A stretch of DNA of 64,000 bases from Candidatus Eiseniibacteriota bacterium (lineage in GTDB: Bacteria; Eisenbacteria; RBG-16-71-46): positions 21,965 through 85,964 of the forward strand of contig JACOSV010000026.1 in NCBI GenBank assembly GCA_016178725.1. Reading direction: 5' to 3'. The notes under the pieces were generated by a model. The model ran no database searches and was not told where the DNA came from. It saw only the letters and a program-made list of their open reading frames with translations. A program made the translations under genes and the position numbers. This document shows positions 3,684 to 11,212 of this stretch, piece after piece. Every line of letters begins with the position of its first letter. Position 1 is the first letter of the stretch.

Positions 3684-6062
3684 ATGACCGTTCCCGTCAT
3701 GCGCGAGGCGAGCGCCGGACATCTCCCGGTGCTCCACGACGACCCCGGCTGCCTCGTGATCCTCTCCGAGCGGCTGCGCGAGAGTCCCGGCATCGTCGCC
3801 ATCGAAGCCGATTTCGGCGCCGGCACGCTCACCGTGCGCTACCAGCCGTCGCTGGTGGACGCCGAGCGCCTGAACGCCCTCGCCGAAGAGACCGGCGCGA
3901 TGTTCGCTCGGCGCGTGACCTACTGCGAGCGCCGCGAAGCGCTCGGGTCGTGCGAGGAGTGCGCGCTGCGGCTCGGCGCGCTCGCGCCCGAGGCGAGCGG
4001 CGAGTTCGCCGCCACCGCCGAACGCGGCCGCGTCGGACTGTCGCGCCGCCCGATCCCGCGCGAAACCGCCGAGCTGGTGCGCCCGCTGGCGCGAGCGAAG
4101 CCGTGGGGCGCGACGTTCTCGAACGCCGAGATCGACGCCGCGGCGAAGAGCCGCGCCATGGCGGTGCTCACCGGCACGTGCCTCGTCCTGCTCCTCGGCG
4201 GCATGGTGCTCGAGCGCATCGCGCTGCCGCCGATCGTGTCGCGCGCCGCCTTCGCGCTCGCGGCGCTCTCCGGCGGATGGTTCGCGTTGCGCTCGACGGT
4301 GCGCGCGCTGGCGCGGTTCCGCTTCGACGTGAACCTCCTCATGATCCTCGCCGCGGTCGGCGCGGGGGCGATCGGCTACGTCTTCGAAGGCGCCGTGCTG
4401 ATGTTCCTGTTCTCGTTGAGCAACACGCTCGAGGTCTACACGATGGGCCACACGCGCCGCGCGCTGCGGGCGCTGCTGCGGTTGCGCCCGGCGCGGGCGC
4501 TCGTGCTGCGCGACGGCCGCGAGGTCGAGGTCGAGGCCGAGGACGTGCGCGTCGGCGAGCGCGTGATCGTGAAGCCGGGCGAGGCGGTGCCGGTGGACGG
4601 CACGGTGCTCGCGGGCGCGTCGCTCATCGATCAGAGCAGCCTGACCGGCGAGTCGGTGCCGGTCGAGAAGGCCGTCGGCGACCGCGTGTTCGCGGGCACG
4701 ATCAACCAGCAGGGATCGCTCGAGGTGCTGACGAGCCACGCCGCGGGCGACACGACGCTCGCGCGCATCGTGCAGCTCGTCGAAGACGCGCAGGAGCAGA
4801 AGTCGCGCACCGAGGAGCTGGCGCAGTGGGTGGGGCGCTACTACACGATCGCGGTGATGATCGGTGCGGCGCTGATGATCGCGATCCCGCCCTTCGTGAT
4901 GGGCCGCGCGTTCGCGCCGTCGTTCTACCGCGCGATGGTGCTGCTGGTGGTGGCCTCGCCGTGCGCGCTGGTGATCGCGACGCCCGCCACGGTGCTGTCG
5001 GCGATCGCCAACGCGGCGCGCAACGGCATCCTGTTCAAGGGCGGACGCTTCATCGAGGCGCTCGGGCGCGTGAAGGCGGTCGCGTTCGACAAGACCGGCA
5101 CGCTGACCCAGGGGCGCTTCGAAGTCACCGACGTGGTGGCGCTCGCGGGCGGAACGGATCGCGACGTGCTGCGCTGGGCCGCGAGCGCCGAGAAGCGCTC
5201 GCAGCATCCGCTGGCGCAGGCGGTGGTGCGCGCCGCGGAGGCGCGCGACATCGCGATCACGCCCGCCGAGCAGCTCACGTCGCACCTCGGCAAGGGGCTG
5301 GTGGCGACCGTCGGCGCCGTGCGCGTCGAAGTGGGAACGCCCGAGCTGTTCGAATCGCTCGGCACGCCGGCGCCGGCCGCCGGGGTCGAACGCATCGCCG
5401 CGTTCCGGAGCGAAGCGCGCACGGCGATGCTGGTGCGCTGGTCGTCCGCCTCGCCGGGGAACGGCTCCGGACCGGTCGGATGGGGTGTGATCGCGGCGGC
5501 CGATCAGGTGCGGCCCGCGGCGGCGCCGACGCTCGCGTCACTCAAGCGCCTCGGCATCCGGAGCGCGGTGCTGCTCTCGGGCGACAGTCCGCCGACAGTC
5601 GAGGTGATCGCGCGGCGCACCGGCGTGGACGAGCATTTCGGCGGCCTGCTGCCCGAGGACAAGGTGCGCGTGATCGGCGCGCTCGAGCAGCGCCACGGCG
5701 ACGTGGCGATGGTCGGCGACGGCGTCAACGACGCGCCGGCGCTGGCGCGCGCGACGGTCGGCATCGCGATGGGCGGGATCGGCAGCGACGCGGCGATGGA
5801 GAGCGCCGACATCGTGCTGATGAGCGACGATCTGACCGCGCTGCCCTACGCGGTGTCGCTTGCGCAGCGCGCCCGGCGCGTGGTGATCCAGAACGTGTCC
5901 ATCGCCGCGGGCGTGATGCTGGTGCTGGTGACGATGGTGTTCATCGGCGCCCAGACGCCGTTCGGCGCGCTCAAGCTGCCGGTCGCGGTCTCGGGCCACG
6001 AGGGGAGCACCGTCGTGGTCATCCTGAACGGGCTCCGCCTGCTGCGCGGCCGGCGCGGCTGA
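3684..6062 (+). CDS. Heavy-metal translocating P1B-type ATPase, Zn/Cd/Pb type.
   Basis: Motifs: transmembrane CPC (SPCALVIATP), DKTGTLT phosphorylation site, GDGVNDAPAL, C-terminal HEGSTVVVILNGLRLL. The N-terminal metal-binding region is non-canonical: CEEC replaces GMTCxxC. Confidence 0.85.
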   Translation: MTVPVMREASAGHLPVLHDDPGCLVILSERLRESPGIVAIEADFGAGTLTVRYQPSLVDAERLNALAEETGAMFARRVTYCERREALGSCEECALRLGALAPEASGEFAATAERGRVGLSRRPIPRETAELVRPLARAKPWGATFSNAEIDAAAKSRAMAVLTGTCLVLLLGGMVLERIALPPIVSRAAFALAALSGGWFALRSTVRALARFRFDVNLLMILAAVGAGAIGYVFEGAVLMFLFSLSNTLEVYTMGHTRRALRALLRLRPARALVLRDGREVEVEAEDVRVGERVIVKPGEAVPVDGTVLAGASLIDQSSLTGESVPVEKAVGDRVFAGTINQQGSLEVLTSHAAGDTTLARIVQLVEDAQEQKSRTEELAQWVGRYYTIAVMIGAALMIAIPPFVMGRAFAPSFYRAMVLLVVASPCALVIATPATVLSAIANAARNGILFKGGRFIEALGRVKAVAFDKTGTLTQGRFEVTDVVALAGGTDRDVLRWAASAEKRSQHPLAQAVVRAAEARDIAITPAEQLTSHLGKGLVATVGAVRVEVGTPELFESLGTPAPAAGVERIAAFRSEARTAMLVRWSSASPGNGSGPVGWGVIAAADQVRPAAAPTLASLKRLGIRSAVLLSGDSPPTVEVIARRTGVDEHFGGLLPEDKVRVIGALEQRHGDVAMVGDGVNDAPALARATVGIAMGGIGSDAAMESADIVLMSDDLTALPYAVSLAQRARRVVIQNVSIAAGVMLVLVTMVFIGAQTPFGALKLPVAVSGHEGSTVVVILNGLRLLRGRRG

Positions 6063-7326: not shown

Positions 7327-8247
7327 ATGTCGATCGAGGGCCGATTCATCGAGGTGATCGGCGTGCCGGTGGATCTCGGCGCGGGCCGGCGCGGCGTGGA
7401 CATGGGCCCCTCGGCGATCCGCGTCGCCGATCTCGAGGCGCGGCTCGAGCAGCTCGGCCATCAGGTCGAGGACCGCGGCGATCTCGACGTGATGATCCCC
7501 GAGACGCAGGCGGTGGGCGAGAGCAAGCTGCGCTACAAGGAGCCGATCCTCGCGATGTGCGACCGGTTGAGTGCGGCGGTCGAGGAGGCGCTCGGCCGCG
7601 GACGGCTGCCGCTCGTGCTCGGCGGTGACCACTCGATCGCGATCGGCTCGATCGCCGGCTCGGCGTCCCACTACGCGCGCGAGGGCGCGGCACTCGGCCT
7701 GATCTGGTTCGACGCGCATGGCGACGCGAACACGCCCGAGACGACGCCGTCCGGCAACATCCACGGCATGGCGCTCGCGATCGCGCTCGGCCTCGGCGAT
7801 CCCGATCTCGTCCGCCTCGGCGGCCGCACGCCCAAGATCCGGCCGCGCAACACCGCGCTGATCGGGCTCCGCGACGTGGACCCCGGCGAGCGCGAGACGC
7901 TGAAGAAGGTCGGCATCGAGGTCTACACGATGCGCGACATCGACGAGCGCGGCATGCGCGACGTCGTGGACGAGGCGATCCGGATCGCGAGCGACGGCAC
8001 CGCCGGCATCCATCTCTCGTTCGACCTCGACGTCGTGGATCCCGAGGACGCGCCCGGCACGGGGACGCCGGTGTGGGGCGGCATCACGTACCGCGAGGCG
8101 CACCTGGCGATGGAGCTGGTGAGCGACCGGGCCGAGATCGTGGCGATCGACCTCGTCGAGGTGAACCCGGTGCTCGACACGCAGAACATGACCGGTGTGC
8201 TGGCCGCCGAACTCGCCCAGAGCGCGCTCGGCAAGCGGATCTTCTAG
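7327..8247 (+). CDS. rocF: Arginase.
   Basis: 306 aa. Binuclear-Mn motifs of the ureohydrolase family: GGDHSIAIG, DAHGDANTPETTPSGNIHGM, SFDLDVVDP. Confidence 0.85.
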   Translation: MSIEGRFIEVIGVPVDLGAGRRGVDMGPSAIRVADLEARLEQLGHQVEDRGDLDVMIPETQAVGESKLRYKEPILAMCDRLSAAVEEALGRGRLPLVLGGDHSIAIGSIAGSASHYAREGAALGLIWFDAHGDANTPETTPSGNIHGMALAIALGLGDPDLVRLGGRTPKIRPRNTALIGLRDVDPGERETLKKVGIEVYTMRDIDERGMRDVVDEAIRIASDGTAGIHLSFDLDVVDPEDAPGTGTPVWGGITYREAHLAMELVSDRAEIVAIDLVEVNPVLDTQNMTGVLAAELAQSALGKRIF

Positions 8248-8280
8248 AGGACACGGCGTCCGTCGCCGGCCGGCGTCCTC
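8247..8280 (+). terminator. GC-rich imperfect palindrome downstream of the arginase stop; terminator-like.
   Basis: GAGGAC...GTCCTC arms enclose the 12-nt perfect palindrome CGCCGGCCGGCG (8263-8274). No clear U-tract follows. Confidence 0.25.
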
Positions 8281-8341
8281 GGGCGCCCGCGCCAGTCCGC
8301 GCTTGACGCGGCGGCCCCGCGGCCCGCATCATCTCCACGCG

Positions 8342-8434
8342 ATGAACCCAATCCTCATGGCGATGCCGATGTGTTGTTGCCACATGCTCGAGGGGAGCAT
8401 GCGGTATCGGCGCGCTGGGGGACGCAGAGACTAG
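8342..8434 (+). CDS. Candidate Met/Cys-rich leader peptide, 30 codons.
   Basis: ATG AAC CCA ATC CTC ATG GCG ATG CCG ATG TGT TGT TGC CAC ATG CTC GAG GGG AGC ATG ... TAG translates to MNPILMAMPMCCCHMLEGSMRYRRAGGRRD. That is 6 Met and 3 consecutive Cys codons. It lies in the 5' leader of the FMN-reductase/LLM-monooxygenase operon and is followed by a terminator hairpin. The region is AT-richer than its surroundings. Confidence 0.35.
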   Translation: MNPILMAMPMCCCHMLEGSMRYRRAGGRRD

Positions 8435-8469
8435 TCCCGGGGCTCTAAGCCCCGACAGCAGACCGAGAC

Positions 8470-8512
8470 GACCGCGGCTCCCACTCCGGTGGGGGCCGCG
8501 GTCGTTTTCATT
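8470..8512 (+). terminator. Intrinsic terminator/attenuator hairpin immediately upstream of the FMN reductase RBS.
   Basis: GACCGCGGC-tcccactccggtggg-GGCCGCGGTC: a perfect 9-bp outer stem plus a nested CCCAC/GTGGG stem, followed by GTTTTCATTT. GGAGG and the ATG at 8525 come directly after. Confidence 0.45.
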
Positions 8513-8524
8513 TCGGAGGCAAGC

Positions 8525-9130
8525 ATGAGCGTGATCGCACAGCTGTCGTCGTTGCGCGCCATCGGACTCTCGGCGAGTCCCGGCGGCGCGTCGTCCCGGT
8601 CGCATCAACTGCTCGCCGCCGCACTCGCGCGGCTCGGCGAGCTCGGCTTCGCCGGCGCGATCGTCGACCTCGCCGCGTTCCCGGCCGACGCGCTGCTCGG
8701 CCGCGCGCGCGATCGCGCGCTCGACCGCGCGATCGCCGATCTCGCCGCGGCGCAGGTCGTGGTCGTGGCGACGCCGGTCTACCGCGCGTCGTACAGCGGG
8801 CTGCTCAAGGTGTTCCTCGACCAGCTCGACGAGGATGCACTCGCCGGCAAGGTCGCGGTGCCGATCGCCTCGGGCGGCGGACCCGCGCATCTGCTCGCCA
8901 TCGACCACGGGCTCCGCCCGCTGCTCACGAGCCTCGGCGCCACGGTCGTCGCCGCGGGCGTCTACGCGACGCCGGCGGGATTCACGGACGGCGTGCCGGG
9001 CGGGGCACTGCTCGACCGGCTCGACCGCGCGCTCACCGAGGCCGTCACGCTCGCCACCGCGGCGATCACGCGCCGCGATTTCGCGCCGGCCGCGGCGCAC
9101 CGACACGCACCGCTCGCACTGGAAAGGTAG
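8525..9130 (+). CDS. NAD(P)H-dependent FMN reductase (SsuE/MsuE-like).
   Basis: GGAGGCAAGC then ATG. Flavodoxin-like FMN reductase pattern: IGLSASPG...S.S, VVVATPVYRASYSGLLKVFLD. Confidence 0.7.
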   Translation: MSVIAQLSSLRAIGLSASPGGASSRSHQLLAAALARLGELGFAGAIVDLAAFPADALLGRARDRALDRAIADLAAAQVVVVATPVYRASYSGLLKVFLDQLDEDALAGKVAVPIASGGGPAHLLAIDHGLRPLLTSLGATVVAAGVYATPAGFTDGVPGGALLDRLDRALTEAVTLATAAITRRDFAPAAAHRHAPLALER

Positions 9131-9137
9131 GTTCGCC

Positions 9138-10106
9138 GTGCCCGTCCATCCCGATCGTCCGATCGCCATCTACCACGAGCATCCCGACTGGTTCCGCCCG
9201 CTGTTCTCCGAGCTCGAGCGCCGCGGCACGCCGTACGTGCGGCTCGACGCGACCAGCCACCGCTACGACGCCGCGGCGCCGCGCCCGCCGTACGCGCTGG
9301 TCTTCAACCGCATGAGCCCGTCGGCGTGGACGCGCGGCCACGGCCACGGGATCTTCTACACGCTCCAGTACCTCGAGCACCTCGAGCGCCTCGGCGTGCG
9401 CGTCGTCAACGGCGCGCGCGCGTTCCTCACCGAGATCTCGAAGGCGCGCCAGCTCTCGCTGCTCGAGCGGCTCGGGCTGCCGTATCCGCGCGCCCGCGTG
9501 ATCCACGATCCGCGCCACGCCCCGGCGGCGGCGCAGGGGCTGCGCTTCCCGATCGTCGTCAAGCCCAACATCGGCGGCAGCGGTGCCGGCGTGCGCCGCT
9601 TCGACGACGCCGAGGCGCTGCGCGCCGCGGCCGAGGACCGCGTGTGGAGCCTCGGCATCGACGGCACCGGGCTCGTGCAGGAGTTCATCCCCGCCGAGGA
9701 GGGACGGATCGTGCGCGTCGAGGTGCTCGGCGGCCGCTACCTCTACGCGATCCGCGTCTACACGAACGGCGAGAGCTTCGATCTCTGCCCGGCGGACATC
9801 TGCCGCGGCTTGGACGGCGCCGAGCTCGAGCGCAGCGCGTGCCCGGTGGACGCGCCGAAGAACGGCCTGCGCGTCGAGGCGTACGAGCCGCCGGCCGCGA
9901 TCGTCGCCGACGTCGAGCGCATCACCGCCGCGGCCGGGATCGACGTGGGCGGCGTCGAGTACGTCGTGGACGCGCGCGACGGCGGACATCGGTTCTACGA
10001 CGTGAATGCGCTCTCCAACTTCGTCGCCGACTCGCCGCGGGTCGTCGGCTTCGACGCCCATGCACGGCTCGCGGACTGGCTCGAAGCGGAGGCGAGCGCG
10101 TCATGA
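9138..10106 (+). CDS. ATP-grasp domain protein (RimK/glutathione-synthetase-like ligase).
   Basis: GTG start with an upstream GGAAAGG. ATP-grasp core: FPIVVKPNIGGSGAGV...GLVQEFIP...RVEVLGGRYLYAIRV. The stop overlaps the next start as ATGA. Confidence 0.65.
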   Translation: MPVHPDRPIAIYHEHPDWFRPLFSELERRGTPYVRLDATSHRYDAAAPRPPYALVFNRMSPSAWTRGHGHGIFYTLQYLEHLERLGVRVVNGARAFLTEISKARQLSLLERLGLPYPRARVIHDPRHAPAAAQGLRFPIVVKPNIGGSGAGVRRFDDAEALRAAAEDRVWSLGIDGTGLVQEFIPAEEGRIVRVEVLGGRYLYAIRVYTNGESFDLCPADICRGLDGAELERSACPVDAPKNGLRVEAYEPPAAIVADVERITAAAGIDVGGVEYVVDARDGGHRFYDVNALSNFVADSPRVVGFDAHARLADWLEAEASAS

Positions 10107-11212
10107 GATTCGGATACTGGCTACCCGTGTTCGGCGGCTGGCTGCGCAACGTGCCCGACGAGGGCATGGAGGCGAGCTGGGCCTACGTGAGCCGGCTCGC
10201 GCGGAGGAGCGAGGCCATCGGCTTCGATCTCACGCTGGTCGCCGAGCTGAACCTGAACGACATCAAGGGCGTGGACGCGCCGTCGCTCGACGCGTGGTCC
10301 ACGGCCGCGGCGCTCGCGGCCGTGACCGAGCGGCTCGAGATCATGGTCGCCGTGCGGCCGACGTTCCATCCGCCGGCGCTGCTCGCCAAGCAGACCGCGA
10401 GCCTCGACCAGTTGAGCGGCGGGCGCATCACGCTCAACGTAGTCTCGTCGTGGTGGGAGGACGAGGCGCGGCAGTACGGCGTCGAGTTCGACGCTCACGA
10501 TGCGCGCTACGCGCGCACCGCCGAGTGGCTGACGGTGGTCTCGGGCATGTGGAACGAGGCGAAGTTCAGCTTCAGCGGCCGCTACTACAAGGTCGAGGGT
10601 GCGGTGCTCGAGCCCAAGCCGCGCCGCTGGCCGCGGCCGACGCTCTACGCCGGCGGCGAGTCCGAGGCGGCGAAGGAGCTGATCGCGCGCTCGTGCGACG
10701 CGTACCTGATGCACGGCGATTCACCGGAGCGCGTCGCGGCGAAGGTCGCCGACCTCTCGGCGCGGCGCGCGCGCTGGGGGCTGCCGCCGATGCGCTTCGG
10801 CGTCGCGGGCTACGTCGTGTGCCGCGACAACGAGGACGAGGCGCGCGCCGAGGTCGCGCGCATCACGACGCTCAAGCCCGGAGCGCCCGGGTTCGAGAAC
10901 TTCGGCCAGTGGGTCAACGGCACGCAGCTCGAGCAGCGGCTCAAGCTCGAGGACTACTCGGTCTCGAATCGCGGCCTGCGCTCGGGGCTGATCGGCACGC
11001 CGGAGCAGATCGCGGCGCGCGTGCGTGCGTTCGAAGCCGCGGGCGTCGAGCTGCTGCTGCTCCAGTTCAGCCCGCAGGCCGAGGAGATGGAGCGGTTCGC
11101 GGCGGAGGTGATCCCGCTATGCGGTGCGGCGGAGCCGAGCGTGACGCTCGAACCGGCGGGCGAGAGCGCGGCGGCGGCGGAGCGGAACGCAACGGCTGCG
11201 GCGTCGGCCTAG
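10104..11212 (+). CDS. LLM-class flavin-dependent monooxygenase (luciferase-like; SsuD/SfnG-like).
   Basis: MRFGYWLPVFGGW...LTLVAELNLN...RITLNVVSSWWEDEARQYG...YAGGESEAAKELIA. Translationally coupled to the ATP-grasp gene. Confidence 0.8.

Follow-up and report, generated by a model that had tools for sequence, protein, structure and literature searches.

A candidate leader-peptide attenuator with clustered cysteine and methionine codons upstream of an SsuE/SfnG-like operon in Eisenbacteria, Gemmatimonadota, and Acidobacteriota

A 64,000-nt stretch of a Candidatus Eiseniibacteriota genome (GenBank assembly GCA_016178725.1, contig JACOSV010000026.1, positions 21,965 to 85,964 of the forward strand; hereafter the window, numbered from its first letter) contains a short leader, rich in cysteine and methionine codons, directly upstream of a three-gene operon for an SsuE-like reductase, a RimK-like ligase, and an SfnG/SsuD-like monooxygenase. 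We propose, with a probability of a little under four in five, that this leader is a ribosome-mediated transcription attenuator that reports charged tRNA-Cys, and probably charged tRNA-Met, to the operon. Four of the features by which an attenuator can be recognized in silico are present: a conserved open reading frame (ORF), an in-frame codon cluster, a terminator, and a predicted, mutually exclusive antiterminator. An initial annotation, made from the letters alone, had suggested leader-peptide attenuation here, and that reading is supported by the ORF, the terminator, the antiterminator, the sulfur-type enzymes encoded downstream, and a SAM-II riboswitch at the same place in other genomes. 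The elements of the leader are as follows.

8303–8332, forward strand: promoter-like site, TTGACG (8303–8308), 18-nt spacer, CATCAT (8327–8332); one site against 0.0 expected in shuffles.
8342–8434, forward strand: leader ORF, 30 codons plus TAG, encoding MNPILMAMPMCCCHMLEGSMRYRRAGGRRD; the only such ORF in the window, its position kept in 52 of 80 loci.
8357–8386, forward strand: candidate regulatory codon cluster, Met codons 6, 8, 10, and 15 (8357, 8363, 8369, and 8384) plus Cys codons 11–13.
8371–8389, forward strand: segment 1, left arm of hairpin A, containing the Cys codons; a stalled ribosome would cover or melt it.
8391–8413, forward strand: segment 2, GGGGAGCAUGCGGUAUCGGCGC, predicted partner of either segment 1 (hairpin A) or segment 3 (antiterminator).
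8414–8459, forward strand: central junction, GCUG/CAGC (8414–8417 with 8456–8459) enclosing two small hairpins, present in both alternative folds.
8463–8484, forward strand: segment 3, CCGA plus the terminator left arm GACGACCGCGGCUCCCAC (8467–8484).
8489–8513, forward strand: segment 4, the terminator right arm (8489–8506) plus the U-rich tail UUUUCAUUU (8505–8513).
8515–8527, forward strand: GGAGG Shine-Dalgarno (SD) sequence (8515–8519) and ATG (8525–8527) of the first structural gene.

The leader ORF is a strong compositional outlier in a window of 72% GC. It reads exactly as initially described, with six ATG codons (codons 1, 6, 8, 10, 15, and 20) and three consecutive Cys codons, TGT TGT TGC (codons 11–13; 8372–8380). 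Among the codons of seven reference genes, Cys accounts for 0.54% and Met for 1.6%, with TGT and TGC at a ratio of 1:15. Given this composition, the binomial probability of at least three Cys in the leader ORF is 5e-4 and that of at least five internal Met is 9e-5; for the Met residues around the Cys run (MAMPM-CCC-HM), P = 2e-6 under a gene-like Met frequency. On both strands of the 64 kb, no other ATG-initiated ORF of 70 amino acids or fewer carries a C-x0-1-C-x0-1-C cluster, so that the earlier impression of an ORF unusual for its surroundings is borne out.

Relatives were collected by a one-genome-per-species scan with a reductase alignment, which yielded 80 loci (loci of relatives are numbered L001 and so on), mostly of Gemmatimonadales and including two Eisenbacteria, two Acidobacteriota, and three Actinomycetota. 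Conservation was counted over 80 loci whose upstream sequence spans 260 nt or more, the window, L001, and L002 included, and a leader ORF was defined as an ATG-initiated ORF of 8–70 codons with three or more Cys that ends 40–130 nt before the reductase gene. Such an ORF is found in 52 of the 80 loci, compared with 4.6% of dinucleotide shuffles and 2/80 on the reverse complement. Its carriers include Eisenbacteria (the window, L001, L002, L005, and L028), many Gemmatimonadales, and Acidobacteriota (L053 and L082). The close metagenome relatives L001 and L002 retain the ORF with its Cys run, the promoter, and a near-identical terminator, with MSHLHLHMAMPMCCCCMLRGSTRYRRAGGRH as the leader peptide of L001 and ...MNAARTCTPMCCCRMLDGSTRYRRAGERES as that of L002. 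Typical peptides of other relatives are MKPVTMLMCCRVCRPMCCTGSGRSGASACGMT, MKPTCMAMRCLCPCPMCCSGG..., MLACACCHSPLMM..., and MMMRRCCCCRPMCMG..., and the two Acidobacteriota encode MRHRCLCPCICS... and MRNCCCPCLCS..., with nucleotides and terminators unrelated to those of the other leaders.

These comparisons separate the leader ORF into two parts. Across the 52 leaders, Cys makes up 17% and Met 9.6% of residues (0.1% and 0.2% in the adjacent reductases), and the Cys codons invariably share the reading frame of the start codon, with TGT and TGC used interchangeably (140 and 118 times, respectively). The cluster is thus conserved as codons, a point that the initial annotation had proposed to test among orthologs. 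A motif that follows it, GCGGNCGAU (GCAUGCGGU in Eisenbacteria), lies in frame 0, 1, or 2 in 3, 22, and 13 leaders, respectively, and the C-terminal part of the peptide varies wholly (SGRSG..., ERTI..., ADDL...) while the RNA motif stays. Since the Cys codons keep their frame and the motif occurs in all three, constraint appears to act on codons in the first half of the ORF and on RNA in the second. The window and L001 are 96.8% identical in the terminator, 87.8% from the Cys codons to segment 2, and 63% in the 5' part of the ORF, against 78% in the reductase coding sequence. Such a pattern is what a regulatory leader should show, and it speaks against a functional peptide as well as against an RNA that is purely non-coding.

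Tuning to Met as well as Cys, as originally suggested, holds in part. In most Gemmatimonadota lineages, the sequence-unrelated L056 and L063 among them, the Cys run has Met codons on its flanks, so that these codons are recurrent, but they are not universal. Judging from codon content, the window's lineage is likely to respond to Met and Cys together, but this does not define the whole class.

A separate scan of metagenomes used the pattern ATGTGTTG-N70-100-RCCGCGRCTCC, which is biased towards the window's terminator. Eleven of its 120 matches are genuine leaders, each of them upstream of the same reductase gene, and the rest are mostly chance matches. With one such ORF in 64 kb and a terminator-biased metagenome pattern, the data speak neither for nor against a wider regulon of Cys-rich ORFs. 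Apparent CCC ORFs near position 5400 in the loci were rejected as out-of-frame readings of the monooxygenase gene.

The start of the leader ORF has a recurrent arrangement. In the window, only 9 nt and no SD sequence separate the end of CATCAT in the promoter-like site from the leader ATG, which would make the ORF leaderless or nearly leaderless; L001 and L002 share this promoter-like site. Most of 49 leaders have a -10-like hexamer (TAGGTT or TAGTTT, with TTGCA/C 17 nt upstream) whose end lies 8–10 nt from an ATG or GTG start, and leaders whose annotated ATG is more distant have an in-frame GTG at 8–10 nt from the hexamer. The spacing points to leaderless or near-leaderless initiation, similar to that of the mycobacterial and Deinococcus leaders discussed below. 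L002 has an insertion of ~70 nt (L002:2740–2815) that separates the promoter-like site from the leader ORF. The insert consists of a GC hairpin (GCGCCGCCGC...GCGAGCGGCG) followed by UUCAUUUUCGGAGG, resembles a copy of the terminator tail and SD sequence, and supplies the ORF with its own GGAGG, which the window's ORF does not have.

A strong hairpin follows the ORF. Its arms (8467–8484 and 8489–8506) form 18 bp with one G-U pair around a UCCG loop, at -42.5 kcal/mol and z = -8.8; none of 200 dinucleotide shuffles folds equally well. Downstream lie UUUU-CA-UUU (8505–8513), GGAGG (8515–8519), and the ATG at 8525, and the space between the terminator and the reductase SD sequence is too small for a separate promoter. 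We aligned 48 leaders with MAFFT for the analysis of structure covariation. In this alignment, 95.8% of cells of the terminator can pair and 9 of 15 pairs show compensatory changes, a result reached by none of 500 shuffles. The terminators of L053, L056, L063, and L082 end in 6–9 consecutive U. These results support the initial annotation's reading of the U-run hairpin as a terminator.

The leader as a whole (8300–8530) is highly structured (z = -5.45), and its free fold comprises hairpin A, a three-way junction, and the terminator. Hairpin A is built from three helices (8371–8376/8408–8413, 8378–8381/8403–8406, and 8383–8389/8395–8401; about -22 kcal/mol). The central junction holds hairpins at 8419–8423/8434–8438 and 8439–8444/8448–8453, with the leader stop UAG (8432–8434) inside it, and its GGGGC/GCCCC hairpin is paired in 77% across relatives. 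The sequence of segment 2 resembles the right arm of the terminator. To model stalling, we barred pairing of the RNA covered by a ribosome at the Cys codons and cut the transcript before the terminator right arm. In this stalled fold, 8391–8410 pairs with 8463–8486 through the helices GGGAGC/GCUCCC, UGCGGU/ACCGCG, and UCGG/CCGA; the energy of the duplex is -26.8 kcal/mol. With the ribosome placed at the stop codon, the terminator forms. L037, L032, L005, and L028 behave in the same way. A mutually exclusive pairing between the 3' part of the ORF and the terminator left arm, which the initial annotation had proposed to look for by folding, is therefore predicted in the window and recurs across lineages.

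We asked how far this pairing exceeds chance. In the alignment of 48 leaders, 75.8% of antiterminator cells are paired, compared with 36–47% for slid partners, and a core of 9 bp is nearly invariant. Because this core hardly varies, covariation within Gemmatimonadales is limited. The segment 1:2 structure, taken from one member, is paired in 73% of cells and in 35–52% when slid. Automated picking of terminators had mis-called several loci, the window included, and a duplex test was therefore run with hand-checked left arms, in which the energy of the post-Cys region against the terminator left arm was compared with 1000 dinucleotide shuffles. The window's duplex reaches P = 0.033, and combining seven lineages with differing terminator sequences by Fisher's method gives P = 1.8e-4. 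The partner lies at ORF nt 41–70, just after the Cys cluster, in nearly all lineages, and it changes together with the terminator: GGGAGAGGGGG with CCCCUCUCC in L053, AGAGAGGUGGC with GCCUCCUCUC in L056, and GGGAGAGCGGUCGGGG with CCCGGCUCUCUC in L063. Statistical support for the antiterminator and for the segment 1:2 pairing is modest.

The operon downstream consists of the following genes.

8525–9130, forward strand: SsuE-like NAD(P)H-dependent flavin mononucleotide (FMN) reductase, 201 amino acids (Pfam PF03358, 87 bits; TIGR03567 SsuE, 136.5 bits).
9138–10106, forward strand: RimK-family ATP-grasp ligase-like protein, 322 amino acids, GTG start (TIGR00768, 80 bits).
10103–11212, forward strand: luciferase-like FMNH2-dependent monooxygenase of the SfnG/SsuD clade, whose start overlaps the ATP-grasp stop (ATGA) (Pfam PF00296, 212 bits; TIGR04021 SfnG, 253 bits).

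The SsuE-like reductase and the SfnG/SsuD-like monooxygenase of the initial annotation are both present; it had placed the second directly after the first, but the RimK-like gene (9138–10106) lies between them, as it does in nearly all related operons. Canonical ssu and sfn operons are not known to include a RimK-like ligase. At the protein level, the reductase matches one from a Candidatus Eisenbacteria metagenome-assembled genome with 100% identity. SsuE is the best match of the reductase, and among NCBIfam models the monooxygenase matches SfnG best and SsuD second. In the PDB, the monooxygenase matches 8vw6 (deposited as an alkanesulfonate monooxygenase; 370 bits) and the dimethylsulfone monooxygenase 8t0u (191 bits). 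From these assignments, we infer that the operon scavenges organosulfur compounds. The window's reductase lacks Cys altogether and has no Met beyond its start, and homologous reductases average 0.1% Cys and 0.2% Met. Proteins of sulfur starvation are known for a low sulfur content, and the composition of the reductase fits a protein made under sulfur limitation.

The three-gene operon is kept in 48 loci with a Cys leader, and it occurs without a Cys-rich ORF in at least 22 loci, three with a SAM-II riboswitch and about 19 with another conserved leader or none. SAM-II (RF00521; gathering score 36) occupies the same operon position in L007 (40.4 bits), L060 (39.0 bits), and L052 (36.3 bits), before orthologous FMN reductase, ATP-grasp, and monooxygenase genes in Gemmatimonadaceae and Gemmatimonas metagenome-assembled genomes. 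The sites lie at L007:2785–2859, L060:2788–2864, and L052:2791–2867, each followed by a terminator-like hairpin, and L058 has the same sequence. A SAM-II riboswitch at this position ties the operon to sulfur amino acids, and because some genomes have the Cys leader and others SAM-II, the operon appears to be wired to sulfur-amino-acid status by different RNA devices.

A third conserved leader of the operon is seen at L043:2770–2960 and in L006, L055, and L062, with similar sequences in L011 and L081. It has TTGACC-17-TATGAT, a GCAA...UUGC hairpin, and a terminator-like GAGUCCGGCCCGGCUCU...AGAGUCGGGCUGUUUCAC. It contains no Cys ORF and has no Rfam match at E <= 1, and may be an undescribed RNA element. 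In nine loci (L016, L018, L042, L049, L065, L073, L075, L076, and L083), there is no leader, and the reductase GTG comes directly after a conserved promoter-like stretch, CTTGCC...GATCTTGCC, ~60 nt before the reductase start. This arrangement suggests leaderless versions that are not attenuated; three of them (L016, L018, and L042) are paralogues that lack the ATP-grasp and monooxygenase genes.

We suggest that the leader would work as follows. The promoter-like site at 8303–8332 would drive transcription from a start a few nt upstream of the ATG (8342), and a ribosome would start on the 30-codon ORF without an SD sequence. When Cys and Met are plentiful, the ribosome would reach the UAG at 8432, and segment 1 (8371–8389) would re-pair behind it with segment 2 (8391–8413). 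Segment 3 would then be free, the 18-bp terminator (8467–8506) with its U-run would form, and RNA polymerase would halt before the operon. When sulfur amino acids are scarce, the ribosome would stall on the Met/Cys cluster (8357–8386) and cover segment 1. Segment 2, thus freed, would pair with 8463–8484, which includes the terminator left arm, so that no terminator would form and the operon would be transcribed.

Several observations weigh against this mechanism. We infer the transcription start, translation of the ORF, termination and its relief, and the physiological signal from sequence features, and an ORF without an SD sequence would need leaderless-type initiation in an uncultured phylum. 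A generic terminator scan of the window did not call the hairpin, which has an interrupted U-tract (UUUUCAUUU), and the terminator was the only consensus helix that RNAalifold found in the 48 aligned leaders. For segment 1:2, two-sided changes and pair types are no higher than in shuffles, the structure having been taken from one member. In stalled minimum free energy (MFE) folds, left-arm pairing amounts to 71% in real and 62% in shuffled sequences and is significant in one of 45 loci, a count that fails to discriminate because GC-rich RNA pairs with almost anything. The duplex test gives modest P values per lineage (0.002–0.25 for most and 0.88 for L041). The Met codons are missing from the cluster in L028, L053, and L082. 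On the side of the operon, the enzyme scores fall under the NCBIfam equivalog cutoffs (136.5 versus 164 bits for SsuE and 253 versus 383 bits for SfnG). Lastly, weak 4-bp helices on the SD sequence may leave room for a translational component.

This last point bears on an alternative in which the Cys-sensing ORF acts mainly on translation or Rho, with a stalled ribosome that unmasks the reductase SD sequence or blocks Rho and a hairpin that serves as a stabilizer or pause site. The only poly-Cys leader studied experimentally, Ms5788A, works by SD sequestration (bioRxiv 10.1101/834739), the U-run in the window is interrupted, and in the full-length MFE fold GGAGG (8515–8519) is partly paired (8513–8516 with 8463–8466 and 8518–8521 with 8364–8367). 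These helices are, however, just 4 bp each, and an SD-sequestering duplex is not the conserved structure, as the dominant terminator hairpin ends 9 nt before GGAGG. The 18-bp GC hairpin with its U-run is instead conserved with covariation in all lineages, even sequence-unrelated ones, and the frame-independent motif complements the terminator arm rather than the SD sequence. We regard a mainly translational or Rho-based mode as unlikely. The structure could also belong to a ligand- or protein-binding RNA switch with the terminator as its expression platform and the ORF as an incidental feature, given the highly structured region (z = -5.45) with its conserved three-way junction, the SAM-II riboswitches of orthologous operons, and the third, unassigned RNA leader. 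A known riboswitch family was rejected: the window has no Rfam 15 match at gathering score, and at E <= 10 the matches of 8200–8600 are at chance level (best 23 bits versus 52). No conserved unpaired ligand pocket is evident, RNAalifold finds the terminator alone, the Cys codons vary synonymously, and the start codon keeps a fixed distance from the -10-like element. Moreover, the start codon, the in-frame Cys cluster, and a stop before the terminator are kept in lineages without nucleotide similarity, all of which makes an incidental ORF quite improbable.

The opposite proposal, that the ORF encodes a functional Cys/Met-rich peptide (a precursor for the ATP-grasp enzyme or the monooxygenase, or a metal- or sulfur-binding peptide) and that the hairpin sets the ratio of peptide to enzyme, draws on the presence of ATP-grasp enzymes and flavin monooxygenases in peptide natural-product clusters, where precursor genes are often trailed by a partial terminator. 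The N-terminal half, with its Cys and Met positions, is conserved as amino acids, and the ATP-grasp protein has a weak match to the peptide maturase family TIGR04187. That match reaches 23 bits at a cutoff of 350, against 80 bits for the RimK-type TIGR00768, and the monooxygenase belongs to the sulfonate/sulfone clade. At least 22 loci have the three-gene operon but no such ORF, the nucleotides but not the frame are kept after the Cys cluster, and the Acidobacteriota peptides are alike in Cys richness alone. We consider a functional peptide very unlikely, and give equally little credence to a Cys-rich peptide that is additionally a substrate of the ligase or monooxygenase. As for a chance ORF beside an ordinary terminator of the upstream transcription unit, spurious ORFs and hairpins are plentiful in GC-rich genomes, but the leader ORF is the sole one of its kind in 64 kb and is kept in 52 loci of three phyla versus 4.6% of shuffles. 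The upstream arginase gene ends 220 nt earlier with the promoter-like site in between, the operon has no other transcription route, and no dispersed repeat of the hairpin arm was found in the window. The comparative data effectively refute a chance origin. Transcription attenuation by a Cys-sensing, and probably Met-sensing, ribosome thus remains the reading that we prefer.

The classical leader-peptide attenuators are trpL, hisL, leuL, thrL, ilvL, and pheL of Proteobacteria (summarized in PMC4007540 and PMC2965389). The window's leader probably joins them, with an unusual specificity (Cys and probably Met), a predicted leaderless-type start, and a scavenging-type target. In common with the classical systems, it has a short ORF with a run of candidate sensed codons, the predicted alternative of 1:2 plus a 3:4 terminator or a 2:3 antiterminator, and a terminator immediately before the first gene; sensing of several amino acids is known there (thr and ilv). 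It differs from them in its predicted input, in an ORF that starts ~9 nt after a -10-like hexamer, in a three-way junction between segments 2 and 3, and in targets that are scavenging-type rather than biosynthetic enzymes. This leader type is hosted by Eisenbacteria, Gemmatimonadota, and Acidobacteriota, and no Rfam model matches it.

Cys-rich leaders have been described elsewhere. Leader peptides with Cys codons were predicted in Actinobacteria by Seliverstov et al. 2005 (PMC1262725), who found no terminators, and leaderless poly-Cys ORFs of mycobacteria (Ms5788A, Rv2334A, and others) are Cys-responsive attenuators that act on translation (Canestrari et al. 2020; bioRxiv 10.1101/834739). The window's leader resembles these small ORFs in its consecutive Cys codons (CCC, codons 11–13), a predicted leaderless-type first cistron, a predicted stalling signal, and sulfur or cysteine genes downstream. 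Unlike them, it has a covarying terminator and a predicted antiterminator, precedes an ssuE/sfnG-like operon rather than cysK/cysE-type targets, and places Met beside Cys in most lineages; there is no sequence homology between the two, and the phyla are different. In Deinococcus deserti, de Groot et al. 2014 (PMC4007540) reported a leaderless 10-residue leader peptide of cysS with two Cys, for which transcription attenuation was proposed. This, too, is a Cys-codon leader peptide at an mRNA 5' end, translated there, whereas the start in the window is predicted only; its target is cysteinyl-tRNA synthetase, it has two Cys only, and it is a case from one species without comparative or structural work on alternative hairpins. 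In an incomplete literature search, we did not find a Cys/Met leader described with a terminator, before ssu/sfn-type genes, or in Gemmatimonadota, Eisenbacteria, or Acidobacteriota. The novelty that the initial annotation had claimed is therefore roughly right within that search: Cys leaders are known from Actinobacteria (PMC1262725; bioRxiv 10.1101/834739) and Deinococcus (PMC4007540), and none was found described with a terminator, Met, or an ssu-like operon. SAM-II, together with the S-box and the Cys T-box elsewhere, is a functional analogue, in the case of SAM-II at the same operon position in L007, L052, and L060. It differs in that it binds S-adenosylmethionine directly and needs no translation, and the window's leader has no similarity to it.

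Nearly all documented cases of leader-peptide attenuation concern Trp, His, Leu, Thr, Ile/Val, and Phe and come from Proteobacteria and a few Gram-positive bacteria. If our reading is correct, the leader would be the first terminator-type attenuator for Cys (and Met); it would give Candidatus Eisenbacteria a first regulatory mechanism, one that is also widespread among soil Gemmatimonadota. Three different RNA devices would couple one operon to sulfur status, and the trio of reductase, ATP-grasp protein, and monooxygenase would be flagged as a sulfur-limitation response, which gives a functional handle in mostly uncultured phyla. The mechanism itself is textbook, but the leader family spans phyla, is missing from Rfam, is interchangeable with a SAM riboswitch, and would control an uncharacterized operon of little-studied bacteria; the about 60 leaders found suffice for a covariance model for genome annotation. 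A bolder view, which we put forward tentatively and think somewhat doubtful, is that leaderless dual-input Met/Cys sensors arose in or spread over three phyla, interchangeable with SAM-II and at least one undescribed leader, and that the operon is an unrecognized route of organosulfur assimilation.

A classical Leu leader-peptide attenuator is predicted in Gemmatimonadetes at L013:5545–5800 (and the same in L012), with a TTGACA-17-TAACCT promoter-like site. Its ORF (5605–5703) encodes MMPFALVLVLLLLVLLLSIPAQEGSAARENMT, with the Leu run MMPFALVLVLLLLVLLL..., and is followed by a GC hairpin (CCGCGGACC...GGUCCGCGG) with UUUUUUU and by a LeuA-like gene that starts MERNVSIFDTTLRDGEQAPG. Given a Leu-run leader and a terminator before a LeuA-like gene, classical attenuation evidently operates in these bacteria. 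A CCC ORF near 5615 in L012 and L013 was rejected as an out-of-frame reading of this Leu-run leader. In the window, a GC-rich palindrome, CGCCGGCCGGCG within GGCGUCCGUCGCCGGCCGGCGUCC, lies at 8248–8300, after the arginase stop (8245–8247), and is not followed by a U-run.

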